Shown here one piece after another: positions 1,859 to 63,433 of a stretch of DNA of 64,000 nt (the first letter of the stretch is position 1; each line of letters begins with the position of its first letter). A model generated the notes under the pieces. It was not told the origin of the DNA. It saw nothing but the letters and a program-made list of their open reading frames with translations, and did not search any database. Made by a program: the position numbers and the translations under genes. The DNA lies in assembly GCA_038063535.1 (NCBI GenBank), contig JBBTUV010000003.1:416-64415 (forward strand). Direction: 5' to 3'. Source of the stretch: Patescibacteria group bacterium (GTDB lineage Bacteria; Patescibacteriota; Minisyncoccia; Phycocordibacterales; UBA9973).

Positions 1859-2595
1859 TGATTTATTTATACGCATTCGGAAGTGTGATTCTGGTGAGTC
1901 TCATTTCACTGGTCGGGATTTTTGTGCTCACTTTTAAAGAAGAGTGGGTACGCAAATATATTTTTTTTCTAGTAAGTCTCGCGGTCGGCGCGCTCTTGGG
2001 CGATGCCTTTATTCACCTAATCCCGGAGGCCTTCGAAGAAGGAATTTCGTCGGCGGGGCTCTTCGTCACTGTTGGCATCCTTATCTTTTTTATCTTTGAA
2101 AAATTTATGCACTGGCACCACCACGGTGCGGACGTAGAAGAGCCGGAAATTCACCCGGTTGGCAAGCTTGTTCTTTTCTCTGATGGGGTTCACAACTTCA
2201 TTGACGGGATAATCATTGGCGTTTCCTACATGGTGAGTATTCCCCTTGGGCTCGCGAGCACGCTCGCAGTTGTTCTGCACGAAATCCCGCAGGAGATCGG
2301 CGACTTTGCCGTGCTCCTCCACGCCGGCTACGCCAAGAAGCGAGCGCTCTATCTTAACTTTCTGTCGGCCGCAGCGGCGATCGCCGGAACTCTTTTGGCA
2401 TTTATTCTCGGGGAAGGCGGTAAGGAGCTCGCCGCCTGGGTTCTGCCATTTGCCGCCGGGGGTTTCATCTACATCGCTATGAGCGATCTCATCCCGGAAC
2501 TTCATAAAACAAAAGAGCTGAAGCACTCTTCACTTCAGCTGGTTGCGGTTCTTATCGGAATTCTCGCGATGCTCGCACTCACGCTTTTAGAGTAG
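1858..2595 (+). CDS. ZIP family metal (zinc) transporter
   Basis: ZupT/ZIP signature HNFIDG and HEIPQEIGDF. About 8 TM segments and a His-rich loop (HWHHHG). Confidence 0.85.
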   Translation: MIYLYAFGSVILVSLISLVGIFVLTFKEEWVRKYIFFLVSLAVGALLGDAFIHLIPEAFEEGISSAGLFVTVGILIFFIFEKFMHWHHHGADVEEPEIHPVGKLVLFSDGVHNFIDGIIIGVSYMVSIPLGLASTLAVVLHEIPQEIGDFAVLLHAGYAKKRALYLNFLSAAAAIAGTLLAFILGEGGKELAAWVLPFAAGGFIYIAMSDLIPELHKTKELKHSSLQLVAVLIGILAMLALTLLE

Positions 2596-2601
2596 TTGGT
2601 C

Positions 2602-3633
2602 TTAGAACGGATTCTTTGCGCCCTTGACTTCGATATGAAGATGCGGGCCGGTCGAGCGGCCGGTATTGCCCACATAACCGATCGTCTCGCTTTTCTCGAC
2701 TCTAGCGCCCACCGAGGTCCCAAGCCGGGACTGGTGCGCGTAGATGGTTTGGGTTCCATTTGGATGGGAGATAATGGTGAGCACCCCGTATCCGCCGTTC
2801 CATCCGGTTCGGGCGAATGTTACGATGCCTTCTGCGGCGGCGAGAATCGGGGTGCCGGTCGGCGCTGCAAGATCAACTCCACGGTGGGTTGATGTAATGC
2901 CTCGGGTGCGCCGCGCTCCGGGAACGGGATTGGTGAAGTAACCGCTCGCGTCTCTGAGAGCAGCCTGTGAAGTCCCTCCCCGAGCGATCGCCGTTCCGGC
3001 TCTCGGAGCGCTTGGGATATTCGCGCCTGGGATCATCAGTTTTTCTCCAATTGAGAGTTTGACGCCGGCTTCAATGTCGTTCGAAAGAAGAATGTCGTCC
3101 ACGTCTACCTTGTATAAGTTAGCTATCCCCTGAAGCGTATCGCCCTTTTTAACCGTATGCTCTACCCCGGAGAAAGGCAGGATAAGGAGAATATCTCCAA
3201 CTTTGAGCTTGGCTCCTTTTTGCAAATCATTTGCGGAAAGAACAGTATCCACCGAGATGTCGAACATTTGGGCTACCTGTGAAACAGTATCGCCCGGCCG
3301 GACTACGTATACGTTAACCTCACCACCCGAAAATTCGACGCCGCCAGTGCCTCCCAAAGCGCCGAGTGGGCTTACCTCTGCGAGAAGCGCATTATCGGAA
3401 AGAATACTAACCTCTCTGCTTGCATCAACATCGCTTTTGCTGTCGCGGACTGAGGCGGAAGAAAAATTGGCCTCAAGTAAGGCCATAGTTTGAGAGTTAG
3501 CACCATCAAGAGAGGGGTTGGTGAGCACGGTCTCCGCTGAAGCTTCGCCAAAGATGGAAGAAAAGAGTCCGGCAGCGACCGGCACGGGCACGGAAAGTCC
3601 TCCCAGGGAACCCAGGAAAAGCGATGCAGACAA
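2602..3633 (-). CDS. LysM-domain M23 family peptidoglycan endopeptidase
   Basis: Signal peptide, two LysM repeats (VKKGDTLQGIANLYKV..., VRPGDTVSQVAQMF...), C-terminal M23 motifs (HRGVDLAA...GNTGRSTGPHLHIEV). Confidence 0.85.
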   Translation of the reverse strand: MSASLFLGSLGGLSVPVPVAAGLFSSIFGEASAETVLTNPSLDGANSQTMALLEANFSSASVRDSKSDVDASREVSILSDNALLAEVSPLGALGGTGGVEFSGGEVNVYVVRPGDTVSQVAQMFDISVDTVLSANDLQKGAKLKVGDILLILPFSGVEHTVKKGDTLQGIANLYKVDVDDILLSNDIEAGVKLSIGEKLMIPGANIPSAPRAGTAIARGGTSQAALRDASGYFTNPVPGARRTRGITSTHRGVDLAAPTGTPILAAAEGIVTFARTGWNGGYGVLTIISHPNGTQTIYAHQSRLGTSVGARVEKSETIGYVGNTGRSTGPHLHIEVKGAKNPF

Positions 3634-3908
3634 AAGAAAACTGAGTATTTTGCTTGTTTTTCTTGGAGGTTTTATAAAACAAAGACGATATCGAGAGAAT
3701 CCCCTTAAGCCTCAGCCCCGCTAGAGCAGGGGGTTGCTTAGAATCACAGGACGACCAAATTGTACTGCAAACAAAGGTTCTCGCGATGGTTACTATCATC
3801 CAGCCAATCAGCCATATATTCCATACCCCTACTGCCGTATCATTCCAGGGTAGCCCAAAACCGCCCCGGGGTCAAACCCCTCCTGTGGAAAGAGAAAACA
3901 GCATATAT

Positions 3909-6900
3909 TTAGGCTGCCATTTTGGGCCTCTCTAGGACTCTTAGATTGTATTTCTCCTGGACACTTTTCTTTATCGTGCCGTCCTTATTCAGAAATTTAG
4001 CTCCCAAATAATCGTGGATCTCTGAATCGAGATTCACTTGTGTACCTCGTATAAAAGCGAGCGTTTGTGGATAAGTATTGCGGCATTGCGGTCTCCCGTT
4101 CTCATAGTCCATAACAGCAAGGAGCATGCTCATGTATCCCGAATCGATCTTTTTGTTCGCCTTTGCCATCGCTTTTACCAGCTCCGGGAGTTTGCGCCGA
4201 TTCACCACCGCTTCGGCGAACAGCTTAAAGTCTATTTTGAATTTTTCCTGAAGAGCTTTGAGAACCCGCCGTTCTGGACCATATGCTCGGTTGGAAAAAT
4301 CGAGAGTTCCGCCGGCTTCGCGATAGGCTTCCAATGCAAGATCTTCAGTGACTGCCTCATTGAGAGCTCTGCCTCTTTCTTTCAGATCCGGCATATTTGC
4401 ATTTCTTCCGATGTATCTAGTCAGCCTCAAGCCGGTGCGACGAGATGTGTAAGTCTTTTGCTCTTTGTCCTCCGTCTCAAATCCCCAATAGTTATTGGCA
4501 ACAGAATCGTGAATCACTTCATGGGAAATGGTGTGAAGAAGAGAATCTTCAAGTGCATCTGGTTCTAAGGTCTCAAGCATATTCATGTTAATGAAGATTT
4601 CCCCTTCCTCAACGATACAAATCCCTGCCGCTTCGACAAATCCACGGTTCGCCATAAATTCATAGAGTCCTACTAAGTGAACTTTCCCGGACGGAGGCAT
4701 CGGGCTGCGATTTTCCCCACCATACTTTTTCATCAAGGCCTCGACATTTTGGTATGCTTTTTCGACGATTTTAGTGTATTTTTCTTTGGTCTCGGCACTC
4801 TCATACTTTTTTCGGTCCGCAAGGATTCTGAATTCCACGTAATCAGCCGCTTCGCGTGCCGAGGGAGCAGCATTGATCTTCTCAAGATCTTCTCGAAGCC
4901 ACACAGTGAAAGGACTTCTGATCATCCTCTCGGCGATTTCTCTGGGTTCGGGGAAAACGTGTTCAGCCGGGTAACGCTCTCCCAGGTCTTCCTCGCCCTC
5001 CAAGGTTTGGCTCCGGCTTGCGATGGAAGCCTTTTCCTTGTATTTTCCTGGTGGAATAGGTTGGGGAGGAAGAACATCAGACTCCTTGCTCCATTCTTTT
5101 GCTTTTTCTTCGAAAGTTTTGCGGCCAAAACCTTTCGCCTCGCCGGTCCCTTTGTAGTCTTCCAGCGCCTTACGTGGGAAAATCGGAATAAAGGACGGAA
5201 GTTCCCAATCTCTATCGACAACTCTGTGGAAAGTGTACTCATGTTTTTCAATAAGCCCGGGAGTGAATTTTTGCCCCACATCGGTCGCGATTGGAGTATA
5301 TTTTCCATCTTCGTCGGCAATAACTGCTTCCAGAAATCCAGGATGGGTCAGTCGGCCACTGGCATCTTTTCCAAAAAGAGAATACAAGCTCTCCGGGATT
5401 ATCGGTTTTCCATCTGCCCCCATTTCTATCACGATTCCTTCATGCTGATTTCCGGTATCAGGAGTAAAGAGTAATTTAATTTTTCCTTCACTCATCAGCG
5501 TGGCAATGTCGGGATGTCGAGAACCCTGAAAAGATTCGAATTGCTTCAAATTGCTTAAATCAATCGCGGGGTGCCCTTGTTCGTCAAAGCCAGTGCTGTT
5601 TACTCCGCCATAGTGAAGCCTAAGTTCGTTTAAATCCGGACGAGTAGTTTCGTTCATCAAATGAGCGTGGCGATGAATTTCCTGCAATTGCTCCGCGTAG
5701 GAATGACGATTTGCTTGTAAATATTCTTCGATGCTCCCGGCAGGAATTTTTGTACCATGATGTTCAAGAGAAAGGCCCAGTTGTTCTACCGAAAGATTCA
5801 AGATTTTGCCATCTTTTCCTTGAATTATTTCCTTCACTAGAACTTCGTGAGTTCTTGAATCAACCAAGGAGCTGGTTCCGTTCGTGTTTTCGATTATCTC
5901 GGTTCCTTGAGGAGCGCGGATTGTCGCAAGGTCGTTGTGGAGTGGGGCGTAAGCGTGAGAAAGATCGGTGGGAACTTCCTGGCCACTTCGCTCGCCTCGG
6001 AAATAATGCCAGAGTCGCTGTATAGATGTTTCCCCTCCGTTTCGTGGATGGATTCCTGTCTTATCAAGCCCTTCCTGGACAACCGCCCCTATTCCAGCAC
6101 CAATTATTCCGCCTACCACGGCCGCCTTGCCCATTTCCTTTGCCCTAAATTTACCAAGCTCTTTATTCACTCCGCCGATCCCTTCATTGAGAACCGCCAT
6201 TCTTTCGGCAAGAGAAGTTTGAAATGCCGCGAGGTCTTTTATCTGCACTTTTGTTTCAGCGAGAATCCTCATAAGCTCGAGGCGGCTTTGGCTAAGCACT
6301 TTTTCCCCTTCGTACTCTATAAGATCAAGCCCGTCAGTTTCAGAAATGGACATTCTGGCTTCCGCATCGGCGGTTTCCTCGATGAGCTGTCTTAATGCTT
6401 CTGGATTTCCCATCCGCGCTTGATTGGAAAGTTCGATCAGCCGATCCTTGATCTCGGATGCAAGACGCATGTCGTAGACGAAGCGCTCCATCGCCTCGCG
6501 ATTTTTTCTTTTCCCTTTTTTGTTTTCGAACTCGGAGATGTCTCGTCCCATTGCTCGCTCCATGCGGTGGGTTGCTACGTCAACTTTTATATCTTTTGAT
6601 CTGCGTAAGGCCCCGAAAAGCGCTCCTGCGCCAAGTGCTCCCCCTAAGAAGTACACCGGTTTCTTGGCAAAATAGGCAGCGACCGAAAGCCCCGCCGCAA
6701 GCCCGGTCGGGGAGAAGAGGTGCGCGAGAACCCTATGTTTTTGGGTACGCTCGATGATCTTGTCGATAAATCCCAAGTTCTGTTCGGTTTTGACAACGCG
6801 CTTCGCATTCCCGAGATCGACTGCAAGTCCTGCGTCGAGGCGGGCGAGTCCCTCGCCATGCTCGGCGAGTTTTCGGAATTCGCGTGCTGCTTCTAGAAAA

Positions 6901-50891: not shown

Positions 50892-53800
50892 TTAAGACTG
50901 TGCTACGCGGCTCTCCGGAGATTGTTTGAACAGATGTCGAATGAGTGCGGCGAGGATGAGCAAGAGGATAAGAAGTATCAGCCAGCCGAAGAAGGTCGAG
51001 GGCAGGAAATCGCCGCCGAAGAGAGCGGCCGCTCCGAGAACCGAACCAGCTCCAGTAAATCTGTGGGTAGTATAAGCAACTGCGTCTCCCTGAGTATCGT
51101 TCGGAGTAGTGTAGACGAGATTCGCTACCACCACTATTTGTTCTCCGCTTTCCGTGCTGCGGTTTGCCGAAGCTACCAAGAAGAGATCATCGGTATCCCC
51201 TGGGCGCAAAGTGCCCACATCAAGATTGAGAGAGTTGTCAGCGCTTGAGAAAACTCCCTTGTTCGATCCATCATAGGTCATGGTCTTTGGAAGAAGAACC
51301 CGGAGAACAACATCTCGGAGAATTTGGCTTGAGACGTTCTCCCATGTCACTTGATAGTATCTCTGCTCGCCGGCGGTAATTATTTCCGCTCCGCCGTCGA
51401 TGCTGAGTTTCACAAGTTCCCCTGCTCCGCTCCCGCCGATCAGGCTGGTAGTACGGATGACTGTTGGCGCAGCTGCGATGAACTGAGAGATTTCATTAGT
51501 GATAAAGGAGAGGATTGCGCCGTTTGATCTTCCGTAAGCGTTTTCGGCAACGGCCCGGTAATAATACACCGTTCTCGGAGAAAGCCCACTCGCAACCGCC
51601 GGATGTACCACCGAAGCTTGGGTTCCGACAGAATCCCTTTGAGTAGAGAAGCCCAAGCCCGGTGTCGCACCCCACTCAAACCAAGCAGTCGCTGAAATTC
51701 CCGAGCTATTGAGGATCAGGGAGCTTAGTTGCGCGTTGCCGCTCGTTATGTTTATTGCGCTAGTGGTAATGGCGGTCGGGGCGTTGCCGAAATCTTGATC
51801 TGTGTCGCCGTCCCTGACCCGGATAGTCACCAGGTCGTCATCCGAATCATCATCGTTTTCGCAACGGATGCTGAAGGTGGTATCGCGGGTGAGGGAACCC
51901 GTATTGAACGATCCGTCGGTATCAAGGTCGCGATTTCTCCAGTTCGAGGTGCCGTCCTCGCCTTCGCAGGAATCTGCGTTGTCGGAATTCCAGCGGATAC
52001 GGGTCGAATCTCCGCTATCTATACTTGTGTCATCAGCAGTTAAGTCCACCGAAACGTTTCCTCCACCGTTGTCTGTTCGAATGGTTACCGAGTCGCTGTC
52101 TTCATCGCCGTTGTTATCAAAGCAAGTGATCCGGAAAGTCGTGTCGCGGTCAAGGTCACCGGTGTCTCTGGATCCGTCGGTGCCCAAATCTCTTCCGTTC
52201 CATCCGTTGTCGCCGTCCTCCCCCTCGCAGAAATCTGCATTGTCAGAAGTCCAGCGGACACGAGTGCTGTCACCTTCATCGATGCGTGTGTCGTCGGCGG
52301 AAATATCAACCGAGACGTTTCCGCCGTTGTCTTCGTCTACGTTTATCGTCACCGAATCGGAATCCGAGCTCGAGTTGTTAGAGCAGACGATGCTGAAAGT
52401 TCTCGTTGAAGTGAGATCTCCAGTGAAAAAAGTTCCTGATGGCCCCCTTGTCCCGCTCCAGCCGCCGGTTCCGCCTGATGCCTGGCAAGAGTTTGCATTA
52501 TTTGCCTGCCAATGGACAATCGTAGAGTCTCGAAAGTTGACGTCATCGTCGTCTGCCCAGATGTCTACGCTCACCTGATTGTTTTGCTGATATCGGCAAG
52601 GCAATAGCCCGCCGTAATTCAGAGCTTGGGGGTCTTGGCAAGTTTGCTGTTGCTGCTCTTGTCCCACTTGCACGGTAACTTGCTCGCTCGAAGTTCCTGC
52701 CGAATTTGAACAAGAAAGAGTGAAAGTGGTGGTGGAGAAGAGCGCTCCGGTTGGGAAAGAAGAATAGAGAGATGTGCTCTTTGCACCCGACCATCCGCTT
52801 GACCCACCCGAGCCGGAACATGCTACCGGATTATTAGTCGGGTTCCAGCGAATGACAGTCGAGCCGGCGTAAGGCATGAATGTACTATCCGCACGCAAGT
52901 TCACGATCGGGCGATTGACTTGTTCGTACAGACAAGGTAGGGGTCCTCCAAAATTCAATGCCTGCGGATCTTGGCAAGTTTGCACTTGCTGTTGGCCGGC
53001 TTGGACGGTTACAGATTCTTGATTAGAGGTTCCCGCGGAATTCGTGCAAGTCATTAAGAACGTAGTGGTGTTTGTGAGTGATCCGGTATTGAATGTACCA
53101 TTCGTGGCGCTTCTCGCCCCGCTCCAACCGTTGGTGCCGCCTGAGGCCTGGCAGGAAGTTGGGTTGTTCGTCGGGAACCATCGAATAGTAGTGGAGCCGT
53201 TATACGGAACAAAAGTACGGTCGGCAGAGAGATTGACCACTGGCCGAATTACTTGCTTATACTGACACGGAAGAGGCCCACCGTAGTTTAGAGCTTGCGG
53301 ATCCTGACAAACTTGAGGAGGTGGCGGAGGAGGTGGCGGAGGAGGTGGCGGCTGGTTACCGACTTGAATTGTCACAAAATCCATATCAGATTGTCCAGAA
53401 TTGTTGAAACAAGTAACGGTGAAATTTTGGGAATTGCTAAGCGCTCCGGTAAAGAAACTGCCGGAGGTTTGTCGCAGACCCGCCCAATTATTTGCCCCAC
53501 CGCTTCCCTGGCAGGATGTTGCGTTCGAAGAATTCCAGCGGACGATGGTAGAACCGCCAAAGCTTAAAACCATTTGATCGGCGGTGATATCAACATTGGG
53601 TTGCGCAGGAGGCGGTGGCGGTGGTGGTGGTGGTGGAGGTGGCGGGTTGACTTGGTTTACGAAAACAGAAACGCTTTCACTATCTGAGAGCCCACTTGCA
53701 CTATCAGTGCAGCGGATACTGAAAGTTGTGGTAGAGGCAGGAAAGAAATCCGCGCGGCCGGTCAGAGGTTTTCCGCCCGGCCAAATGCCCATTCCGCCTG

Positions 53801-54338
53801 AGCCGTTGCAGTTAAGAGTCGAAGAATTTAGGGGTTGTGCGGTCCAGGTAATGCTGGCAACCTGGCCGTTTTGGATTGTAGTAGAACCTCCTTGACCATT
53901 GGCAAAGATATCGACACTAACCTGTGGAGGCGGCGGTGGTGGAGGAGGAGGAGGTGGAGGAGGAGGAGGTGGGGGCGGAGTATCACAAACAGATGTTTTG
54001 AAAGAGATGGTATTTCCTGTCGATTTACCGGAGCTATTTTGCGCCATGGCTCGGTAATAGTAGGTTGTATTTTGGCTCAAGTTAGAAATTTGGGCGCTGA
54101 AATTTAAAGGGGAAGTAAATGTTTGAGGCGAAGTCGCGTACCCGAGAGACTTAGTCGGCCCCCATTCGAACCACACTGCGGTGGCTTTGCCGTTCGGGTC
54201 GACGAATCCGCTCAGAGTCGCGCTATTACATGTCGGAACCGCATATTGCGCGGAGACTGGAGCCTCGCTCGCGAAAAGACTCAGGGCCATTACTAAACCT
54301 GTGATTAAAACAATCGCTGATTTTATTTTTCTGTTCAT
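50892..54338 (-). CDS. giant cell-surface repeat protein (1148 aa): signal peptide, FN3-like ends, polyproline linkers, two families of about 100-aa tandem repeats, C-terminal TM anchor
   Basis: N-terminal signal peptide. Three poly-Pro tracts (up to about 20 P). Four QDPQALN(Y/F)GGPLPC...-type repeats. Two Asp-rich GGNVSVD..ADDT.ID.GDSTR.RW.SDNAD.CEGEDG repeats. C-terminal hydrophobic anchor LILLILLLILAALI. Confidence 0.75.
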   Translation of the reverse strand: MNRKIKSAIVLITGLVMALSLFASEAPVSAQYAVPTCNSATLSGFVDPNGKATAVWFEWGPTKSLGYATSPQTFTSPLNFSAQISNLSQNTTYYYRAMAQNSSGKSTGNTISFKTSVCDTPPPPPPPPPPPPPPPPPPQVSVDIFANGQGGSTTIQNGQVASITWTAQPLNSSTLNCNGSGGMGIWPGGKPLTGRADFFPASTTTFSIRCTDSASGLSDSESVSVFVNQVNPPPPPPPPPPPPPAQPNVDITADQMVLSFGGSTIVRWNSSNATSCQGSGGANNWAGLRQTSGSFFTGALSNSQNFTVTCFNNSGQSDMDFVTIQVGNQPPPPPPPPPPPPQVCQDPQALNYGGPLPCQYKQVIRPVVNLSADRTFVPYNGSTTIRWFPTNNPTSCQASGGTNGWSGARSATNGTFNTGSLTNTTTFLMTCTNSAGTSNQESVTVQAGQQQVQTCQDPQALNFGGPLPCLYEQVNRPIVNLRADSTFMPYAGSTVIRWNPTNNPVACSGSGGSSGWSGAKSTSLYSSFPTGALFSTTTFTLSCSNSAGTSSEQVTVQVGQEQQQQTCQDPQALNYGGLLPCRYQQNNQVSVDIWADDDDVNFRDSTIVHWQANNANSCQASGGTGGWSGTRGPSGTFFTGDLTSTRTFSIVCSNNSSSDSDSVTINVDEDNGGNVSVDISADDTRIDEGDSTRVRWTSDNADFCEGEDGDNGWNGRDLGTDGSRDTGDLDRDTTFRITCFDNNGDEDSDSVTIRTDNGGGNVSVDLTADDTSIDSGDSTRIRWNSDNADSCEGEDGTSNWRNRDLDTDGSFNTGSLTRDTTFSIRCENDDDSDDDLVTIRVRDGDTDQDFGNAPTAITTSAINITSGNAQLSSLILNSSGISATAWFEWGATPGLGFSTQRDSVGTQASVVHPAVASGLSPRTVYYYRAVAENAYGRSNGAILSFITNEISQFIAAAPTVIRTTSLIGGSGAGELVKLSIDGGAEIITAGEQRYYQVTWENVSSQILRDVVLRVLLPKTMTYDGSNKGVFSSADNSLNLDVGTLRPGDTDDLFLVASANRSTESGEQIVVVANLVYTTPNDTQGDAVAYTTHRFTGAGSVLGAAALFGGDFLPSTFFGWLILLILLLILAALIRHLFKQSPESRVAQS
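53314..53980 (-). repeat. simple-sequence coding repeats (GGNGGNGGN on plus strand = poly-Pro CCN codons) and tandem domain-repeat DNA within the giant surface protein gene
   Basis: Runs such as GGAGGTGGCGGAGGAGGTGGCGG at about 53314-53353, 53607-53647 and 53927-53980. Confidence 0.7.
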
Positions 54339-55830: not shown

Positions 55831-55915
55831 GGAGGCGTCGCATAGTGGTTTAGTGCACCTGTCTTGAAAACAGGAGTGTCGAAAGGCACCGTGAGTTCGA
55901 ATCTCACCGCCTCCG
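55831..55915 (+). tRNA. tRNA-Ser (anticodon TGA), long variable arm
   Basis: Acceptor GGAGGCG/CGCCUCC, anticodon stem CCUGU/ACAGG with loop CUUGAAA, long variable arm, T-arm GUGAG-UUCGAAU-CUCAC, discriminator G. Confidence 0.8.
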
Positions 55916-55918
55916 CCC

Positions 55919-56272
55919 ATGAGATTTTTGGGCATTGATTATGGAGCAAAAAGAATAGGGATAGCGCTTTCTGACGAAGGGGGGAAGCTTGCCTTTCCGC
56001 GGGAGATCTTGCCGAACGACTCGAAAGTCTTTGAGAAACTTGAGGGCATAATTCGAGATGAGGGTGTAGCGGAAATAGTTATCGGAGAAACAGATTTGAT
56101 TTTGAGGGAGACCGAAATATTTCGGGAGCAACTGGCTCAAAGATTTGGAATAGCGGTGAGGAGGCAAAAAGAAGAATTGACAACCCGGGAGGCACGACGC
56201 TACCAAGGGGGAGTTGCCGACGCACGGGCGGCCGCGCTCATTCTGCAGCGATACTTGGACAGAAAAACCTGA
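55919..56272 (+). CDS. ruvX: Holliday junction resolvase-like protein RuvX/YqgF
   Basis: N-terminus MRFLGIDYGAKRIGIALSD is canonical YqgF. ATG begins 3 nt after the tRNA-Ser discriminator. Confidence 0.85.
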   Translation: MRFLGIDYGAKRIGIALSDEGGKLAFPREILPNDSKVFEKLEGIIRDEGVAEIVIGETDLILRETEIFREQLAQRFGIAVRRQKEELTTREARRYQGGVADARAAALILQRYLDRKT

Positions 56273-56280
56273 TATAATTA

Positions 56281-57369
56281 TTGCAAATGATCAGGAACAA
56301 GATTTATCGTTTTTTTCCCACGCCTCGGTTCCTTATGTCTCCGTCTTTCGGATTGGATATTTCCGACCAGTCGCTTAAGTTCGTAGAACTCAATGTCACC
56401 AAAGATGGTATTCACATGGGCCACTTTGGAGAGCGGAAAATTCCGCCCGGGATCATCGTTTCCGGGAAAATCAACGATCCGAAACGCTTGAAGGATGTGC
56501 TGTTTGCGCTTCGGCGCGAGGAAGGCATCAGATTTGTGCGCGTCTCGCTTCCCGAGGAGCAAGTTTACCTCTTCCACCTACGACTTCAAAAAGGGAGCCT
56601 CGAGAACCTCCGCGAGGGCATCGAGCTTTCGCTTGAGGAGCATATTCCGATCCCAGCCGCGGAAGCGATCTTCGATTACGAGCTCCTTGCCCAGGATGCT
56701 GGCAGCATCGAGGTGGAGGTGGCCGCAATTCCGCAGAACGTGATCGAGAATTATCTTTCTGTTTTCCGTGAATCTTTTATCTCGGTGCAGTCGTTTGAAC
56801 TTGAGGCTCAGGCGATCTCGCGCGCGGTCATAAAAAAAGGAGACTCGGGTACTTACATGGTCGTGGACTTCGGCCAGACCCGAACAGGCATTTTCATCAT
56901 CTCCCGCGGACTCGCGATCTTCACTTCGACTTTTGAAATGGGAGGCGCCTCGCTTGCCGGCGCGATACAGAAAAGTTTCAAGGTCAGTTTCGAAGAAGCG
57001 GAAAAGATGAAGAAGATGTATGGCCTTCTGCGCAACGCTCCGGAGAAGGAAATCTTCCCGATACTCTTGAACAGTGTCTCGGTCCTGCGCGATGAGATTG
57101 TGAAGCACCTGCTCTACTGGCAGACCCACAAGGATGATCAGGGCAATGACCACCCGCCGATCAAGAAAATTCTCCTCTCCGGCGGAGACTCGAATCTGAC
57201 CGGCCTCCCGGAGTATCTATCCGCAAGCACCCACACCCCAGTCGAACTTGCGAACGTCTGGGTGAACGTCTCTGACACAAAAAAATACATTCCGAGAATA
57301 GATTTTAACAGATCGCTTTCATTTGCGGCGGCGCTCGGGCTCGCGCTCGGCGATTTCGACTATGATTAA
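56281..57369 (+). CDS. pilM: type IV pilus assembly protein PilM (actin-like ATPase fold)
   Basis: FGLDISDQSLKFVEL N-terminus and overall PilM architecture. Alternative start at Met 56335. Confidence 0.8.
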   Translation: MQMIRNKIYRFFPTPRFLMSPSFGLDISDQSLKFVELNVTKDGIHMGHFGERKIPPGIIVSGKINDPKRLKDVLFALRREEGIRFVRVSLPEEQVYLFHLRLQKGSLENLREGIELSLEEHIPIPAAEAIFDYELLAQDAGSIEVEVAAIPQNVIENYLSVFRESFISVQSFELEAQAISRAVIKKGDSGTYMVVDFGQTRTGIFIISRGLAIFTSTFEMGGASLAGAIQKSFKVSFEEAEKMKKMYGLLRNAPEKEIFPILLNSVSVLRDEIVKHLLYWQTHKDDQGNDHPPIKKILLSGGDSNLTGLPEYLSASTHTPVELANVWVNVSDTKKYIPRIDFNRSLSFAAALGLALGDFDYD

Positions 57370-57919
57370 CCTCATCCCGAACCAGGAAAAAAAGAAAAAA
57401 GTAAAGGATTTTTATTTTCGTCTTGCAGTGGTGACCTTTTTCCTCCTTTCTTTCACAATTTTAGTTGCTTCACTGGCGATGATCCCCGCTTACTTCCTCT
57501 CCGCCGCCAAAAAAGACGTGGTATTTACGAAGTTGTCCGAGGAAAGCAATACCCCCAACTCAGCGCTCCTCCTTGAGACCCAGGAGTCTATCGCAGCCTT
57601 GACCAAGAAACTCAATATTGTCGAGAAAGTGCAAAAGAACGAGTACAGAATTTCGGGAAAAGTCGTAAATGAAATACTGGGAGACAAAATCTCCTCGATA
57701 AAGATCACCGCCATTCTCTACGAGACCCCTCTTCCGAAAAACCCGGGTGACCCCAATAAAAAAGTTACGGTTCAGGGTGTTGCCACCAGCCGCGAAGAGC
57801 TGCTTCGCTTTCGCCGCGCGCTCGAGGACAATGTCGCCTTCCAGAAGGTTGATTTGCCAATTTCCAATTTCGTGAAAGGGTCGAATATTTTCTTCTCGAT
57901 AACTCTCACTCCGTCTTAA
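57362..57919 (+). CDS. pilN: type IV pilus assembly protein PilN
   Basis: MINLIPNQ start, single TM, periplasmic domain. ATG at 57362 overlaps the pilM stop by 8 nt; the track start is earlier in frame. Confidence 0.7.
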   Translation: MINLIPNQEKKKKVKDFYFRLAVVTFFLLSFTILVASLAMIPAYFLSAAKKDVVFTKLSEESNTPNSALLLETQESIAALTKKLNIVEKVQKNEYRISGKVVNEILGDKISSIKITAILYETPLPKNPGDPNKKVTVQGVATSREELLRFRRALEDNVAFQKVDLPISNFVKGSNIFFSITLTPS

Positions 57920-57921
57920 AT

Positions 57922-58452
57922 ATGGACACGCCTAGAAGTTTCAAAAAATTTAAAAAGGGTCCGCTTGCTCTTTCGCTCGCTCTTCTCGGATTTTCTGCTG
58001 CTCTTTCTCTCTTTTTATATGGCAAGATTCAGGCGAACAAGCAGGTGCAGGATGAAGCGCAAGGAAGCTGGCAGAGGGCGGTTGAGCTCCGGCGGGAGAT
58101 CAATTTTGCCGAGGACAGAGTGAAAAAAACCGCAGAGGACAGAGTAAAACTAAGTTCACATTTTGCGGAAAGTCTTGATGCGGTCCCGTTCTTGGATTCT
58201 CTCGAAGAGCTGGCCGGAAAGGTTTCGGCGAAATCGGAGATTTCCTTAGTCGATATCGCCAAGGACAAGTCGGGAATTTTCGTGAACCTAAGAGTGGCCG
58301 GGAGTTTCGAGTCGGTATATAAATACTTGCTTCTGCTCGAGAACTCCTCCTACGTCCTAGAATTCAGGGCAGTAAACCTACATAAGGCGAGCAGCGAAAG
58401 CACTGAGTGGCAGGGAGATTTTGCTTTGAAACTTCTTACCTTTATTCCATAA
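57922..58452 (+). CDS. pilO: type IV pilus assembly protein PilO
   Basis: N-terminal TM then coiled coil, position after pilN, PilO-like size. Confidence 0.65.
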   Translation: MDTPRSFKKFKKGPLALSLALLGFSAALSLFLYGKIQANKQVQDEAQGSWQRAVELRREINFAEDRVKKTAEDRVKLSSHFAESLDAVPFLDSLEELAGKVSAKSEISLVDIAKDKSGIFVNLRVAGSFESVYKYLLLLENSSYVLEFRAVNLHKASSESTEWQGDFALKLLTFIP

Positions 58453-58455
58453 AAT

Positions 58456-58758
58456 ATGAAACTAGCGTTCAAGAAAAAGGAAAAAGTTTTCAGGAAAGGC
58501 GGTTTTCATACCAATCCCGACATCGGCTGGGAAGTTGTTCTATACTTTAATTTTGCCTTGATCATCGGCGGATTCGTCTTCGGGTATTTCCTGTGGGGAA
58601 AGGTGAATGAAGAATATGTTCTGCCTCCAAACATCAGCAACGAGAGAAAAGCCGAAGAGGCACAAATAGCAAAGGCACTCGAGTACTTTTCCGAGCGGGG
58701 GAAAAAATCCGCCGAGATCCTGAAGGCTCCTTCTCCTTTCGTTGACCCCTCGAAGTAA
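58456..58758 (+). CDS. small single-TM hypothetical protein downstream of pilO
   Basis: ORF tightly coupled (3 nt) to pilO. One TM helix. Confidence 0.4.
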   Translation: MKLAFKKKEKVFRKGGFHTNPDIGWEVVLYFNFALIIGGFVFGYFLWGKVNEEYVLPPNISNERKAEEAQIAKALEYFSERGKKSAEILKAPSPFVDPSK

Positions 58759-58778: not shown

Positions 58779-58851
58779 GCGCGCTTAGCTCAGTTGGTAG
58801 AGCGACTCGTTTACACCGAGAAGGTCGGGGGTTCAAGTCCCTCAGCGCGCA
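58779..58851 (+). tRNA. tRNA-Val (anticodon TAC)
   Basis: Acceptor GCGCGCU/AGCGCGC, D-arm GCUCAGUUGGUAGAGC, anticodon loop UUUACAC, T-loop UUCAAGU. Confidence 0.75.
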
Positions 58852-58855
58852 CCCC

Positions 58856-58927
58856 GCTCCCGTAGTTCAATGGATAGAACAGGGCTCTTCTAAGGCCTCG
58901 ATGTGGGTTCGATTCCTACCGGGAGCG
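58856..58927 (+). tRNA. tRNA-Arg (anticodon TCT)
   Basis: Acceptor GCUCCCG/CGGGAGC, D-arm GUUCAAUGGAUAGAAC, anticodon loop CUUCUAA, T-loop UUCGAUU. Lies 4 nt after tRNA-Val. Confidence 0.75.
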
Positions 58928-58928
58928 C

Positions 58929-59558
58929 ATGAAATTTAAAATTCTCTACGAAGATGAAGATTATCTCGCGATAGACAAGCCCTCGGGTATTGAAGTTTTA
59001 GATTTGGCAGAAAAATATTTCCCTGAGAAAATTTTAGCGCATCGATTAGATACAGGAACGAGCGGAGTGCTAGTCCTTGCGAAAAGCGAAAAAGTGCGCG
59101 AATTTCTCAAGAAGCAATTTCAGAAGCGCGAAGTTAAGAAAATATATAATGCGATAGTTAACGGCTGGCCGAAGAATGATCGTGGAGTAGTGGATAAGCC
59201 GATCGGGCGGAGCCCGGTGGATTTTAGAAGAAGACTTGCCGGTCGGGGAGTAAAAGGAAAGATCAGGGAGGCGACCACAGAATACAAAGTACTTAAAAGA
59301 TTTGAAGAAGGTGGAAATAAATTCACACTGGTCGAAGTAAAACCCAAAACCGGCCGGACGCACCAGATCCGCGTGCATATGAAGTTCGCAAATTACCCCG
59401 TGGCCTGCGATCCGCTCTACAATCCTGGCAAACCCTGCCCGAAGGGTATTGAGCGCTTGGCTCTCCATGCGAAGTCTGTAGAGTTTAAAAATCTCTCCGG
59501 CAAAACCATCAAAGTGGAATCGCCTCTACCTAAAGAGTTTCAAAGAGTATATATTTAA
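58929..59558 (+). CDS. RluA family pseudouridine synthase (short)
   Basis: Catalytic motif HRLDTGTSGVLVLAKS. ATG begins 1 nt after the tRNA-Arg discriminator. Confidence 0.8.
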   Translation: MKFKILYEDEDYLAIDKPSGIEVLDLAEKYFPEKILAHRLDTGTSGVLVLAKSEKVREFLKKQFQKREVKKIYNAIVNGWPKNDRGVVDKPIGRSPVDFRRRLAGRGVKGKIREATTEYKVLKRFEEGGNKFTLVEVKPKTGRTHQIRVHMKFANYPVACDPLYNPGKPCPKGIERLALHAKSVEFKNLSGKTIKVESPLPKEFQRVYI

Positions 59559-59576
59559 ATATATATTTGAATATAT

Positions 59577-61286
59577 ATGAAATCTGAAACTCGTCAGTGC
59601 CAGAATTGTCACCAAAACTTCACCATCGAGCCGGATGATTTTGGATTTTATGAGAAAATAAAAGTCCCTCCGCCGACTTTTTGCCCGGATTGCAGATTAC
59701 TTAGACGCTTTATGCATACCAGCGAAACAGTCTTGTATAAGAGAAAGTGCGATTTCTCAGGTAAGGAAATTTTTAGCATGTATTCAGAAAATACAATATT
59801 CCCTGTCTATGAAACTGATATTTGGTATAGCGATGCCTGGGATCCATATGAATACGGTATGGATTTTGATGAGAACCGCCCATTTCTCGAACAATTTTTA
59901 GAATTGCAAAATAAGATTCCAAGGATGTCTATTGTTAGACAAGGTAAGGCAGTAAACAGTCCGTACGCACATAGAGTTACAGACCCAAAAAATTCTTACA
60001 TGGTTTTTCGAAGTTCTTATCCTGAAGATTCTATGTACCTCTATAACGGCAAAATGCATATAAAAGACTGTTGCGATGGCTCGTGGCTTTATGAATGCGA
60101 ATTGTGTTATGAGTGCGTAAATTGTGCTAATTGTTACAATGTGAAGTTCAGTCAGGAGAGTAAAGATTCGAGAGATTGTTCTTTTATTTACTCATGCAGA
60201 AACTGCTCAAATTGCGTTGGTTGTGTAAATTTAGTAAGCGCCGAATATTGTATTTGGAATAAGAAATATACAAAGCAAGAATATTTTGAAAAACTCAAAG
60301 AGATGAAACTCAATACTTTCTCTGGGATCGAAAAGATGAAGATTGAATTTGAGAATTTTAGAAAAAAATTCCCTCAAAGAGCAATAATGTCCATAAAATC
60401 TGAAAAGGTTTCCGGCAATTGGTTTTTAAATAGCAAAAATGTTACTAAATCTTTTGATTGTGAAGGAGTGAAGGATGGTAAGTATTTATTTATGGTCTTT
60501 AATGCAGAAGATTGTATGGATTATTTTGAATGGGGGAATAAAGCCGAACAAATTTACGAAACGGAAAATTCCGGCATAGACATTGCGCGTCTGTCTTTTT
60601 GCAACCAATGCTGGCGAGGCTCGCACGATCTATGGTATTGCCATTCCTGCCAAGGGAGCCATAATTGTTTTGGCTGCATGGGTCTTAAAAAAGGTGAGTA
60701 TTCAATCTTGAACAAAAAATATACGAAAGGAGAGTATGAAAAACTGGTGCCGCAAATTATCGAGCAGATGAAAACGATGCCTTATACAGACAACCGTGGT
60801 TTGGAATATCGGTTCGGGGAGAATTTTCCTGCAAGCTTTTCCGATTTTGGCTACAATGAAACCATCGCGAATTATTATCATCCGCTGACCAAAGAAGAAG
60901 CGCAAGAGAAGGGTTACCGCTGGGCGGATAGATTAAAAAATAATTATCAAGTCACCTTAAAAGCTTCTGAGTTGCCGGAAATGATCGGAGAAGTGAACGA
61001 TTCGATTTTGGATGAAGTCATCGAATGTGCGGAAAAAGATCACCCGAATTCCGTCGGCGCTTATCGGATAACGCAAAACGAACTAAATTTCTACCGGCGG
61101 ATGGATTTACCTTTACCGAGAGTATGCTTTGATATCAGGCATATTCGCAGAATGAACAAGCGTCCGCCTCTTAAGATCATCAAGCGCCACTGCTCGCAAT
61201 GCGGTGTCGAGGTAGAAACTGTTTACACCGAAGAATATGCGCCGATCGTTTACTGCGAATCTTGCTACCAAAAAGAAGTCTACTAA
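59577..61286 (+). CDS. cysteine-rich hypothetical protein (569 aa) with N- and C-terminal zinc-ribbon motifs and internally duplicated CxxCxxCxxC modules
   Basis: CQNCHQN...CPDC at the N-terminus and CSQCG...CESC at the C-terminus. Central CELCYECVNCANC...CRNCSNCVGC and CNQCW...CHSCQGSHNCFGC, each followed by a (Y/L)NKKYTK(Q/G)EY(F/E)KL repeat. Confidence 0.7.
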   Translation: MKSETRQCQNCHQNFTIEPDDFGFYEKIKVPPPTFCPDCRLLRRFMHTSETVLYKRKCDFSGKEIFSMYSENTIFPVYETDIWYSDAWDPYEYGMDFDENRPFLEQFLELQNKIPRMSIVRQGKAVNSPYAHRVTDPKNSYMVFRSSYPEDSMYLYNGKMHIKDCCDGSWLYECELCYECVNCANCYNVKFSQESKDSRDCSFIYSCRNCSNCVGCVNLVSAEYCIWNKKYTKQEYFEKLKEMKLNTFSGIEKMKIEFENFRKKFPQRAIMSIKSEKVSGNWFLNSKNVTKSFDCEGVKDGKYLFMVFNAEDCMDYFEWGNKAEQIYETENSGIDIARLSFCNQCWRGSHDLWYCHSCQGSHNCFGCMGLKKGEYSILNKKYTKGEYEKLVPQIIEQMKTMPYTDNRGLEYRFGENFPASFSDFGYNETIANYYHPLTKEEAQEKGYRWADRLKNNYQVTLKASELPEMIGEVNDSILDEVIECAEKDHPNSVGAYRITQNELNFYRRMDLPLPRVCFDIRHIRRMNKRPPLKIIKRHCSQCGVEVETVYTEEYAPIVYCESCYQKEVY

Positions 61287-62509
61287 ATAGGCCCCATTTC
61301 TTTGCCGACCGAGGAGAGAATCTCGAGCGCGTGGTCTATGTGATCGCGAGTGTGCGCGGCGGAGATTTGGAAACGCAGGCGCGCTTTGCCTTCGGGGACA
61401 ACAGGGAACCAGAGGCCGACGACATAGAGACCGCGCTCGAGAAGTTTTTTGCTCATCTCCTGTGTCTTTGCCGCATCGCCGATCATTACCGGCACTATCG
61501 GGTGTTCGCCTTCGAGTACATCGAAGCCCAACTTTTTTACTTCAGTTCTGAAGTAGTTTGCGTTCTCGCGAACTTGTTTGAGCAGTTCTGGTTTTTCTTT
61601 GAGAAGCTCAAGTGCCCGTAGCGAGGCCATGACCACCGAGGGAGGCAAGGAATTCGAGAAAATATATGTTCGGGATTTTTGGCGCAGAAGCTCTATTAGG
61701 TCTTTCGGTCCCGCGACGTAGCCACCGACGGCTCCGCCCAGAGCTTTGCCGAAAGTTCCAGATAACACATCTATTTTTCCGTGCAATCCAAAGTGCTCGG
61801 GAGTTCCAGCTCCAGTTTTTCCTAGTACGCCCACCGAGTGCGCATCATCGACGAAAAGTAGCGCCTCGTATTTTTCGGCCAAAGCTTTAATTTTGGGCAG
61901 ATCGGCCAAATATCCTTCCATGGAGAATACTCCGTCCGTTACTACAAACTTAAACCTATAACCTTTATCTTCATCCTCTTTGAGCATCTGCTCGAGCGCC
62001 ACTAAATCGCCGTGCGGGCAAATTCTTTTAACTAAATTTTCGCGCTTGCAGAGCTTGAAGGCGTCTATGATGCTCGCGTGATTGAGCTCGTCGCTATAGA
62101 TTGCGTCCATGTGCTTTCCGTCCCCGCCGAGAGGTTCGTTTACAATGCTTGCGAAGAAGCCCAGATTCGACATAAAATTCGTGGAATATAGTATCGCATC
62201 TTCGGTGTCCAAGAATTCTGCAAGTTTTTTCTCGAGAGTTTTGTGAATTTTCTCCGTCCCGGCGATGAATCGTACCGAAGAAAGGCCGTAGCCGTATTTT
62301 TCCAGACCCTCTCGGGCCGCTTTTACGATCTCTGGGTGATTCGAAAGGCCGAGATAGTTGTTCGAAGCGAACATCAAAAACTTTTTCCCGTTAATTTCCA
62401 CCTCCGCCCCCTGTGCACCTTCGATCTCGCGCTCGAATTTAAATTTCCCGCCGGCTTTCAGGCTATCAATCTCTTTTTCTACCGCACTTTGTAGTTTTTT
62501 TGAATACAC
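61283..62509 (-). CDS. kbl: 2-amino-3-ketobutyrate CoA ligase (glycine C-acetyltransferase) / 8-amino-7-oxononanoate synthase family PLP enzyme
   Basis: Class II aminotransferase fold with PLP-lysine region (SGTFGKALGGAVGGY) and VDDAHSVG motif. Adjacent to a TDH-like gene, which favours Kbl. Confidence 0.7.
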   Translation of the reverse strand: MYSKKLQSAVEKEIDSLKAGGKFKFEREIEGAQGAEVEINGKKFLMFASNNYLGLSNHPEIVKAAREGLEKYGYGLSSVRFIAGTEKIHKTLEKKLAEFLDTEDAILYSTNFMSNLGFFASIVNEPLGGDGKHMDAIYSDELNHASIIDAFKLCKRENLVKRICPHGDLVALEQMLKEDEDKGYRFKFVVTDGVFSMEGYLADLPKIKALAEKYEALLFVDDAHSVGVLGKTGAGTPEHFGLHGKIDVLSGTFGKALGGAVGGYVAGPKDLIELLRQKSRTYIFSNSLPPSVVMASLRALELLKEKPELLKQVRENANYFRTEVKKLGFDVLEGEHPIVPVMIGDAAKTQEMSKKLLERGLYVVGLWFPVVPEGKARLRFQISAAHTRDHIDHALEILSSVGKEMGPI

Positions 62510-62518
62510 GCTATTTAT

Positions 62519-63433
62519 TTAATTTTTTTTCAGGTTTTTAAGCACTACCTCAGTCATTTTCGGTAGATCATACTCGTGCTGCCAGCCCCAGTCGCGCCTG
62601 GCCTCGCTGTCATCGATGCTCGAGGGCCAGGAATCGGCGATTGCCTGGCGATGGTCGGGAGCGTAACTGATTTTGAAATCTGGGACGTGTTTTTTAATCT
62701 CGGCGGCAATTTCTTTGGGAGAAAAACTGATAGCCGAGAGATTGTAAGACATGCGGGTCTTGAGTTTCTCTGCGGGCGCTTCCATGAGCGAAATCGTTGC
62801 CCTGATAGCATCGTCCATGTACATCATGGGAAGATATGTATTTTCAGAAAGGTAGCAGGTGTACTTGCCTTCTTTAAGCGCTCCATGAAAAATCGCCACC
62901 GCATAATCTGTGGTGCCGCCACTCGGTTCATCGCTTCCTGAGATGAGCCCAGGATAACGAATGCTCCTCACATCTACACTGAATTTCTTATAATAATACT
63001 GGCAAAGAAGCTCCCCCGCATACTTGGTTACCCCATACATTGTCGTAGGTTCTATGATTGTGTGCTGCGGAGTGCTTTCTTTCGGAGTAGTCGGCCCGAA
63101 GGCAGCTATCGAGCTCGGCCAGAATATTTTAAGTTTGTGTTCGACTCCGACATCAAGAACGTTGCGCAGGCTCCCCATGTTGAGCTCCCAGCAGCGCTTC
63201 GGGTCCTTCTCCCCGCTTGAAGATAAAAGTGCAGCTAAATGGTAAATCTCGCCCACATTTTCTTTTTTCACTATAAAGAGAATCGCTTCTTTATCCATTG
63301 CATCAAGGACCACGGAAGCCTCCTTGTGTATGCCGCTTGCGATTACTTGCGAATCTCCGTATTTTTTCCGTAGCGCAAGGACAAGTTCTGTTCCCACTTG
63401 GCCATATGCCCCAATTACAAGAATTTTTTTCAT
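62519..63433 (-). CDS. tdh: NAD-dependent epimerase/dehydratase-fold L-threonine 3-dehydrogenase-like protein
   Basis: N-terminal Rossmann ILVIGAYGQVG. Extended-SDR catalytic YxxxK (YGVTKYAGELL). Paired with kbl. Confidence 0.65.
   Translation of the reverse strand: MKKILVIGAYGQVGTELVLALRKKYGDSQVIASGIHKEASVVLDAMDKEAILFIVKKENVGEIYHLAALLSSSGEKDPKRCWELNMGSLRNVLDVGVEHKLKIFWPSSIAAFGPTTPKESTPQHTIIEPTTMYGVTKYAGELLCQYYYKKFSVDVRSIRYPGLISGSDEPSGGTTDYAVAIFHGALKEGKYTCYLSENTYLPMMYMDDAIRATISLMEAPAEKLKTRMSYNLSAISFSPKEIAAEIKKHVPDFKISYAPDHRQAIADSWPSSIDDSEARRDWGWQHEYDLPKMTEVVLKNLKKN

Follow-up and report, generated by a model that had tools for sequence, protein, structure and literature searches.

Zinc fingers of the TIGR04272 (cxxc_cxxc_Mbark) and PF23477 (zf_Tbcl_2) type are known as small stand-alone proteins or as appendages, and in the purified Methanosarcina mazei small proteins A00184 and A01980 this domain type was found to bind zinc by inductively coupled plasma mass spectrometry (PMC12704099). 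The same spacing, C539-x2-C542-x17-C560-x2-C563, is found near the end of a cysteine-rich protein of 569 amino acids (aa) encoded in the 64-kb stretch of Patescibacteria DNA analysed here (the whole stretch is called the window), and it also recurs at a second N-terminal site (N2) in paralogues of that protein. Unlike in the known members, the finger is here one of four in a protein with a predicted beta-solenoid core. The N-terminal module of the family, C-x2-C...F-Y-x-K...P-x-P-x2-C-P-x-C-R-x2-R-R, aligns to PF13451 (zf_Tbcl), a probable treble-clef domain that is itself of unknown function; the literature search found no paper mentioning PF13451, and nothing in the searchable literature on PF23477 or on the family to which the window protein belongs.

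For the centre of the chain, the described counterparts are beta-helical. In the beetle antifreeze protein TmAFP (PDB 1EZG), Cys or small residues at every third position face inward (PMC8038014). The coil of about 12 residues proposed below would share the 'out-in-out' period-3 register of the Tenebrio/Dorcus antifreeze beta-helix (TCTxSxNCxxAx), whereas the window protein has no signal peptide, the T-x-T ice-binding face is missing and the Cys show no obligate i/i+6 pairing. The likeness would be one of construction only, not of family membership, and neither the window protein nor the family profile gave a sequence or fold match to 1EZG. Hexapeptide-repeat proteins (LpxA, LpxD, GlmU, gamma-carbonic anhydrase) are the sole structures that Foldseek retrieves for the core, at E values of 1e-3 or worse. 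The phage proteins of phrog_15341 are homologous to solenoid 1 and the start of solenoid 2 (residues 155-318 against profile positions 100-255 of 276, E=1.5e-8), and this profile is matched by 31 of the 57 diverse family members used for the domain-model scans. When the family profile was searched against the PDB, just one match was obtained, to the second finger of the LIM domain (CRP1/CRP2; W-x-R-x-C...C-x2-C...Y-C-x2-C-Y), which is not significant (E=0.012), and neither is the Foldseek match to the LIM structure 1qli (E=0.99); no more than half a LIM domain is covered.

The gene (Table 1) is an ATG-to-stop open reading frame (ORF) at exactly the positions, 59577-61286, assigned to it in an earlier note on this DNA, and its product is a 100% match to the metagenome-assembled-genome protein MEK7569469.1 ('hypothetical protein AAB500_01085', Patescibacteria group bacterium). 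The motif strings quoted in that note are all present in the translated protein, with CELCYECVNCANC at residues 174-186, CRNCSNCVGC at 207-216, CNQCW at 342-346 and CHSCQGSHNCFGC at 355-367, and with the motifs WNKKYTKQEYFEKL and LNKKYTKGEYEKL placed as listed in Table 1. The number of Cys is 32 (5.6%) and not the 44 or so estimated previously. As for the two C-x2-C-x2-C-x2-C modules that had been proposed, the first central half does contain true runs (174-186 and 207-216), which include all-Cys coils at 177/180/183/186 and 207/210/213/216, whereas in the second half the runs are broken (C342-x2-C345; C355-x2-C358-x5-C364-x2-C367). Further Cys pairs lie at the protein ends (C8xxC11...C36xxC39 and C539xxC542...C560xxC563). 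No signal peptide or transmembrane segment was found in the window protein (maximum 19-residue hydropathy 0.77); it is soluble and, because both elements are absent, presumably cytoplasmic. A mis-framed ORF is contradicted by the at least 3,680 homologue clusters at 90% identity that were retrieved by sequence search with the window protein, the best 120 homologues being all full length and 63-100% identical to it.

The chain is composed of two kinds of duplicated module, a zinc-finger pair at each end, in which a zf_Tbcl-like finger precedes one of the CxxC-x17-CxxC type, and, in the centre, a pair of predicted beta-solenoids; this architecture, with two zinc ions bound, is in our judgement highly probable. 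When residues 121-290 were compared with residues 291-440, a local score of 140 was obtained, against 34 +/- 6.5 for 1000 shuffled sequences, none of which reached 140 (z=16.3), and the two halves are 34% identical over 125 residues (E=3e-15). Masking of all Cys to Ala left this signal at z=16.5. Therefore, Cys composition is not its cause, and the ancient internal duplication recognised in the earlier note is borne out. A second duplication, which had been missed, relates residues 20-70 to residues 501-551 (29% identity, z=11.9, 0/1000 shuffles).

At the ends of the chain, two sites keep all four of their Cys, one at the N-terminus (N1) and one at the C-terminus (C2). Conservation was followed in an alignment of 337 diverse family members, in which Cys sites were counted by alignment column, since regular-expression counts are unreliable in paralogues that carry extra Cys and His. 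In this alignment, C8, C11, C36 and C39 are conserved as Cys in 94-98% of members, and C539, C542, C560 and C563 in 95-98%. The distance from C11 to C36 is 24 residues in 280 members, and the N1 finger reads C-x2-C-x24-C-P-x-C-R-x3-R; at C2, the spacing is 17 in 298 of the approximately 320 members that have Cys at both 542 and 560. The two inner sites are degenerate in the window protein. At N2, Cys is present at positions 58, 61, 79 and 82 in about 77, 39, 42 and 41% of the family, respectively, and all four occur together in about 40%, with a spacing of 17 in 117 of 123 cases; the window protein lacks those at 61, 79 and 82. At the other inner site (C1), positions 484, 492, 517 and 520 are Cys in 98, 70, 80 and 70% family-wide. 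Read from the alignment, the ancestor had four Cys4 sites, all of them in the terminal modules, and the window protein has kept the outermost two.

Arginines follow directly after the CPxC knuckles, with basic residues in 97% (R40), 96% (R44), 100% (R521) and 99% (R525) of members, and the chain ends exactly six residues past the last Cys in 314 of 337 members, 256 of them with the ending C-[YFH]-x-x-E-[VI]-x. In the domain-model scans, PF13451 was matched by 17 of the 57 members at E<=0.1, one paralogue reaching 20.5 bits across residues 12-51 where the cutoff is 24, and PF23477 by 27 of the 57 at the same threshold, with a best E value of 1.9e-6, about at threshold, and a paralogue at 17.5 bits against a cutoff of 27. 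A fold search with the C-terminal module returned generic zinc modules, none of them significant (best E=0.58). The terminal pairs, which had been said to look like zinc ribbons, behave as highly conserved Cys4 sites, and the C2 domain type binds zinc elsewhere (PMC12704099); the window protein would bind two structural Zn2+ ions.

The central cysteines were assessed by sequence-weighted Cys co-occurrence (phi) in the same 337-member alignment, with the terminal sites as an internal positive control. In the control, positions 61, 79 and 82 are kept or lost jointly (phi 0.93-0.97), as are positions 492, 517 and 520 (phi 0.80-0.95). The central positions are Cys in 13-97% of members, they are swapped singly with Ser, Leu, Val or Ile, and their phi never exceeds 0.32. 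The quartet 207/210/213/216, for example, was found in the states CCCC (202 members), CCCS (45), LCCC (32) and CLCC (8). No fixed set of three or four co-lost ligand Cys was found in the centre and, because its Cys are replaced singly at phi values of at most 0.32, as against 0.80-0.97 in the terminal sites, they do not behave as ligand sets. Scans of Pfam and NCBIfam revealed no cluster-binding family or motif (CxxxCxxC, CxxCxxCxxxCP) and the central spacing is 2-2-2, in agreement with the previous remark that it is neither of the radical-SAM nor of the classic ferredoxin kind. The central CxxCxxC runs probably form a core-packing ladder and not an iron-sulfur (Fe-S) or multi-zinc cluster; the suggestion in the earlier note that the centre holds multi-zinc or Fe-S sites is not supported by the single substitutions, and the period-3 spacing fits the ladder of a beta-solenoid. 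Covariation measured against an internal positive control offers a general means of separating metal-ligand from packing Cys in proteins rich in this residue.

An AlphaFold2 (AF2) model built with 120 homologues reached a predicted local distance difference test (pLDDT) score of 90.3 and a predicted template modelling score (pTM) of 0.88. Its short strands recur about every 12 residues, at 176, 188, 202, 212 and 223 and again at 327, 337, 350, 362 and 374, with a helix after each half. The Cys-frequency profile over residues 160-230 has a single sharp peak at period 3 (0/2000 permutations, p<0.0005) and none at period 6, and the same period-3 signal is present in the second solenoid (p=0.017 or lower); in this register, each third residue over about 22 triplets is small aliphatic, Ser or Cys. 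According to the model, the centre consists of two homologous beta-solenoids with coils of about 12 residues, each closed by an N-K-K-Y-T-K-x-E-Y cap and a helix. When the C-terminal third was modelled alone, its pLDDT was 74.6, compared to >90 in the full-length model, and acidic-region residues fell to 37-77 without the solenoid. This loss of confidence suggests that residues 403-483 pack against solenoid 2. Foldseek searches of PDB and BFVD with the model gave no significant match, none being found at E<=0.001.

Table 1. Position of the gene and of its predicted modules in the window.
Feature	Residues	Coordinates	Strand	Description
Whole gene		59577..61286	+	ATG-to-stop ORF, 569 codons + stop; subfamily A member
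Site N1	8-44	59598..59708	+	Intact Cys4 finger C8/C11/C36/C39 with FYxK...PxPxxCPxCRxxRR motif; zf_Tbcl-like
Site N2 relic	58-85	59748..59831	+	Degenerate CxxC-x17-CxxC finger; C58 alone left
Conserved linker and first solenoid coils (predicted)	86-150	59832..60026	+	D86, W88, D98, F103, Q106, L110, P115 and Y141 >=90% conserved; pLDDT 87-98
Beta-solenoid 1 (predicted)	151-232	60027..60272	+	Cys ladder: Cys, Ser or small aliphatic every third position
Cap motif 1, WNKKYTKQEYFEKL	227-240	60255..60296	+	N228 99% conserved
Basic helical hairpin between solenoids (predicted)	233-272	60273..60392	+	Net charge +4; AF2 helices 233-243 and 248-262
Beta-solenoid 2 (predicted)	273-382	60393..60722	+	Homologue of solenoid 1
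Cap motif 2, LNKKYTKGEYEKL	378-390	60708..60746	+	N379 100% conserved
Helix and acidic region	383-483	60723..61025	+	Net charge -8 over 403-483; conserved G414, P418, Y426, N427, P436, G446 and W449
Site C1 relic	484-525	61026..61151	+	N1 homologue; C484 and C517 retained, 492 = Ser, 520 = Ile
Site C2	539-563	61191..61265	+	Intact CxxC-x17-CxxC finger C539/C542/C560/C563
Fixed C-terminal tail YQKEVY-COOH	564-569	61266..61283	+	Family-wide end position

Other readings of the core were weighed against this one. A multi-metal or Fe-S protein, in which the four inward Cys of successive coils would chelate metal inside the solenoid, is suggested by the high density of Cys and by the two all-Cys coils of the window protein, the second of which is conserved across the family; the single swaps with low phi described above, the lack of any match to an Fe-S or metal-cluster family and the coincidence of the Cys spacing with that of a solenoid core render it highly unlikely. 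A disulfide-stapled beta-helix like that of the beetle antifreeze protein, either extracytoplasmic or redox-switched, would have the same inward period-3 register of Cys and small residues, but we consider it a remote prospect, given that neither signal peptide nor transmembrane segment is present, that i/i+6 partners do not covary (45 members combine C210 with S216, and 32 have C213 but not C207) and that TmAFP is matched neither by sequence nor by fold. As for an enzyme of the left-handed beta-helix (LbH), hexapeptide-repeat acyltransferase kind, the weak tail of Foldseek matches consists of beta-helix proteins only (those named above and a phage hexapeptide-repeat protein), and a fusion with a GNAT acetyltransferase occurs in one family member. 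These matches have template modelling scores of <=0.10 when normalised to the query and of about 0.23 when normalised to the target, the period is 3 rather than 6, and the GNAT fusion is confined to a single lineage. Because there is no family-wide conserved His (the highest being H522 with 63% and H397 with 60%) and no Hexapep match in Pfam even at E<=10, an LbH-type acyltransferase is unlikely, and hardly any credence is given to it here.

The zinc-finger-capped double solenoid belongs to a very large, multi-copy family that is found only in Patescibacteria. A profile search detected at least 4,500 clusters at 50% identity, 1,906 of them at E<=1e-30, and the best 150 profile matches are nearly all of 545-600 aa, with a single match spanning the full length. 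In species-representative genomes, at least 568 family stretches were confirmed with two short peptide patterns alone. None of the homologue matches carries an informative name, Pfam, NCBIfam and PDB gave no match even at E<=10 in sequence searches with the window protein alone, and the PADLOC anti-phage models matched neither the window protein nor three paralogues; thus, no known characterised family, which the earlier note had named as a possible outcome, claims the window protein. The building blocks are familiar ones, zinc ribbons or treble clefs together with a predicted beta-solenoid; neither the architecture nor the family is represented in curated libraries or in the searchable literature.

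The loci listed in the survey are nearly all labelled as Nomurabacteria, Paceibacterota, Staskawiczbacteria, Minisyncoccia or generic Patescibacteria, or are unclassified, in keeping with the origin in the candidate phyla radiation (CPR) that had been surmised; the exception among them is one short contig labelled Bacteroidales. Family-bearing contigs were labelled 'Bacteroidales bacterium' (L064, 5.3 kb) and 'Burkholderiales bacterium' (P0056, 76 kb), and both were probably mis-binned, as their neighbours and sequence similarity look patescibacterial. A phage origin was rejected, as neither a tblastn search of INPHARED nor a search of IMG/VR contigs yielded a relative; the remote phrog_15341 profile is the only link. 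In member P0200 (731 aa), a GNAT acetyltransferase domain (PF00583, E=3e-8) is N-terminal to the full-length protein; as a Rosetta-stone clue this fusion is weak, coming from a single lineage with one cluster member and three contigs.

In a survey of 84 loci, each with 8 kb on either side, 229 family copies were counted, and 66 of the 84 contained 2-9 copies. The largest array has at least 12 tandem full-length copies over 23 kb in one single-cell Patescibacteria genome (L027 + L060, contig JALLOO010000001.1, 9192-32318). Neighbours within tandem arrays are full-length paralogues at 36-42% identity. Clustering at 55% identity yielded 77 subfamilies, each essentially single-copy per locus and in recurrent gene orders. 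Therefore, the paralogues are old and individually conserved, not the product of fast-turnover arrays. Subfamily A, which includes the window protein, has 24 members in 24 loci; in the window, the protein is the sole family copy.

With respect to function, the positions conserved in at least 90% of members are mostly aromatic (31 positions), Asp, Asn and Arg, and none of them is His. The window protein would be a non-enzymatic, rigid binding or scaffold protein, in which the finger ends, bearing the invariant arginines R40/R44 and R521/R525, would join with the constant -CYxxEVY-COOH tail to provide the surfaces that hold a macromolecular partner, either nucleic acid or protein, while the many ancient paralogues may supply different specificities or different subunits. 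We lean slightly towards this explanation as a whole, a zinc-finger-capped double beta-solenoid with two Zn2+ that acts as a non-enzymatic binder or scaffold; taken by itself, the binder or scaffold role is evenly balanced. Several observations weigh against this account. The window protein gave no match to PF13451, PF23477 or TIGR04272, even at E<=10, and therefore is not filed here as a member of PF13451 or PF23477; the count of two zinc ions draws on conservation and on a related domain. In addition, the quartet C207/C210/C213/C216 retains Cys in 83-96% of members, more than would be expected of packing alone, and residues 150-200 of the AF2 model have a pLDDT of 64-79 only. Binding of nucleic acid is not favoured by the mildly acidic character of the whole protein (pI 6.0) or by its end modules, which are not strongly basic (net charge -1 and +3). 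Finally, the label of binder or scaffold was reached partly by elimination, and is held with lower confidence.

In the 84 loci surveyed, the commonest non-family neighbours are a soluble VirD4/TraD/HerA-like P-loop ATPase (32 loci), DnaJ (16) and DnaK (10), and a recurrent order is PaaX-like regulator, DnaK, x, ATPase(zf), family array, (RsmE), ATPase, DnaJ. The ATPase lies within two genes of 27 of the 71 uncut arrays, and on both sides of 13 of them. It occurs in a long form (about 660-750 aa), which has a CxxC-x17-CxxC finger (51.9 bits with TIGR04272, 49.5 bits with PF23477) and a Pro-rich tail, and in a short form (about 480-520 aa) without the finger. In one of the loci (L004), the finger of the long ATPase (2041-4263) is followed by about 250 low-complexity residues among which Pro, Lys and Glu abound. 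Both types have an NTPase domain (TrwB_AAD_bind, T4SS-DNA_transf), with Walker A at residue 42 or 64, and lack transmembrane segments and the membrane anchor of true coupling proteins; they score 47-54 bits against type IV coupling protein (T4CP) equivalog cutoffs of 250-650, and they do not qualify as T4CPs, which combine a VirD4/TraD NTPase domain with an N-terminal membrane anchor and are encoded near virB4 or a relaxase. Against PADLOC, only weak mad8 and HerA matches were found for them. A previous survey counted 5,713 VirD4-like homologues in 2,918 Patescibacteria genomes, just 148 of them near virB4, and noted that exaptation 'cannot be ruled out' (PMC12102498).

The linkage was also followed in the reciprocal direction, by looking for a family member within 8 kb at 80 loci of finger-bearing ATPases from an independent metagenome collection. 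A family member was present at 12 of the 80, and all 12 belong to the 31 closest ATPases (>=57% identity), with none at the other 49. Therefore, the linkage is a lineage-restricted synteny, and an obligate partnership between the family and the ATPase is ruled out. In many Nomurabacteria-like genomes (L004 1-10893; L002, L007, L020, L081 and others), dnaK and dnaJ are split by the ATPase(zf), the family array, (RsmE) and the second ATPase; there, dnaK has a divergently oriented PaaX-like regulator (PF20803) on its upstream side and a ClpP-like fragment of 183 aa behind it. Other genes, assigned by eye, lie in or beside arrays: a CutA-like gene of about 103 aa at 7 loci (c11: L024, L042, L044, L049, L057, L066, L069) and a cytidylyltransferase-like gene of about 166 aa at 6 loci (c9; listed L008, L024, L029, L048, L055, L073, L077).

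On these grounds the family could serve the orphan soluble VirD4-like (T4CP-like) ATPases as partner, adaptor or substrate; together with the two paralogous ATPases it would form one module in the dnaK-dnaJ locus, in which the shared finger would allow both to bind the same partner. The frequency and closeness of the ATPase, its presence in the recurrent gene order, the finger type common to the long ATPase and the family, the lack of transmembrane segments in both ATPases and the abundance of orphan VirD4-like homologues far from virB4 argue for it. The weak reciprocal result, the absence of any such ATPase from the entire 64-kb window and the placement of orthologues at 73-80% identity between Frr-RseP and Map-Ddl argue against it, and synteny among related genomes is not independent evidence; such a reading, and with it a working partnership with the neighbouring ATPases, is unlikely. 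We see a still more doubtful case for a nucleic-acid-binding or ribosome-associated factor, one that would take part in translation or RNA metabolism by contacting RNA or DNA through its zinc ribbons and arginine helices. The nearly invariant arginines after the knuckles fit such a role, as do the recurrent translation-related neighbours (Frr, Map, RsmE and a ribosomal-protein operon, with RluA and the tRNAs in the window) and the weak fold matches of the C-terminal module, which include ribbons of the ribosomal protein L32 type. However, none of those fold matches is significant, the protein taken as a whole is acidic, no family that binds RNA or DNA was matched, and translation genes are so frequent in small CPR genomes that such neighbours would be expected by chance; this role is quite improbable.

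In the window, the gene is preceded by PilM, two ORFs in the positions of PilN and PilO, tRNA-Val, tRNA-Arg and RluA. The PilM region (56281-58758), about 1 kb upstream, resembles a type IV pilus assembly cluster, with PilM (PF11104, E=2e-33), two PilN/PilO-sized ORFs without Pfam match and a 100-aa ORF. Between the rluA stop and the ATG of the gene there are 18 AT-rich bases (59559-59576) with no obvious Shine-Dalgarno motif and, given that these are the only bases between them, rluA and the gene are probably co-transcribed. In the region 58779-58929, the last base of tRNA-Arg(tct) is 58928 and the rluA ORF is listed as starting at the next base, 58929; in the region 55831-55919, a tRNA-Ser ends at 55917, just ahead of the start (55919) of an ORF that looks RuvX/YqgF-like by eye. 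In both rluA and the RuvX/YqgF-like gene, translation probably begins downstream of the mechanical ORF start. On the opposite strand (61283-63433), a Kbl-like class I/II aminotransferase gene and a Tdh-like gene of the NAD-dependent epimerase family, a threonine-degradation pair by eye, converge on the gene, the stop codons overlapping by 4 nt (61283-61286). A 1148-aa ORF on the minus strand (50892-54338), with weak matches to DUF11 and to a purple-acid-phosphatase N-domain only, probably encodes a large surface protein.

Even orthologues that share 73-85% identity do not retain these neighbours: those at 73-80% are the ones between Frr-RseP and Map-Ddl, and one at 85% belongs to a three-copy array beside PaaX-DnaK-ATPase. 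A function deduced from rluA, the tRNAs or kbl was therefore rejected, and the adjacency to rluA and tRNAs pointed out in the earlier note is uninformative.

The domain map yields a clear prediction for the zinc-finger-capped double solenoid, namely two zinc ions per chain and no Fe-S. The family is among the larger protein families of Patescibacteria without a name, a full-length Pfam or NCBIfam model or a paper. Patescibacteria genomes are roughly 1 Mb in size, and at least 12 copies over about 23 kb amount to a few percent of such a genome. For the unexplained orphan VirD4-like ATPases of these bacteria, the family is a candidate, though non-obligatory, genomic partner. It is a very unlikely but far-reaching idea that the ancient paralogues assemble into a Patescibacteria-specific cytoplasmic structure of zinc-finger-capped, cysteine-laddered beta-helices, joined end to end via their homologous N- and C-modules and loaded, remodelled or powered by the finger-sharing ATPases; if true, it would account for the thousands of coupling-protein homologues that are kept far from type IV secretion genes. 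Members of the subfamily remain 63-86% identical in many genomes, and the ancient paralogues each occur as one copy per locus; taken together, these features point to an important, organism-specific function.

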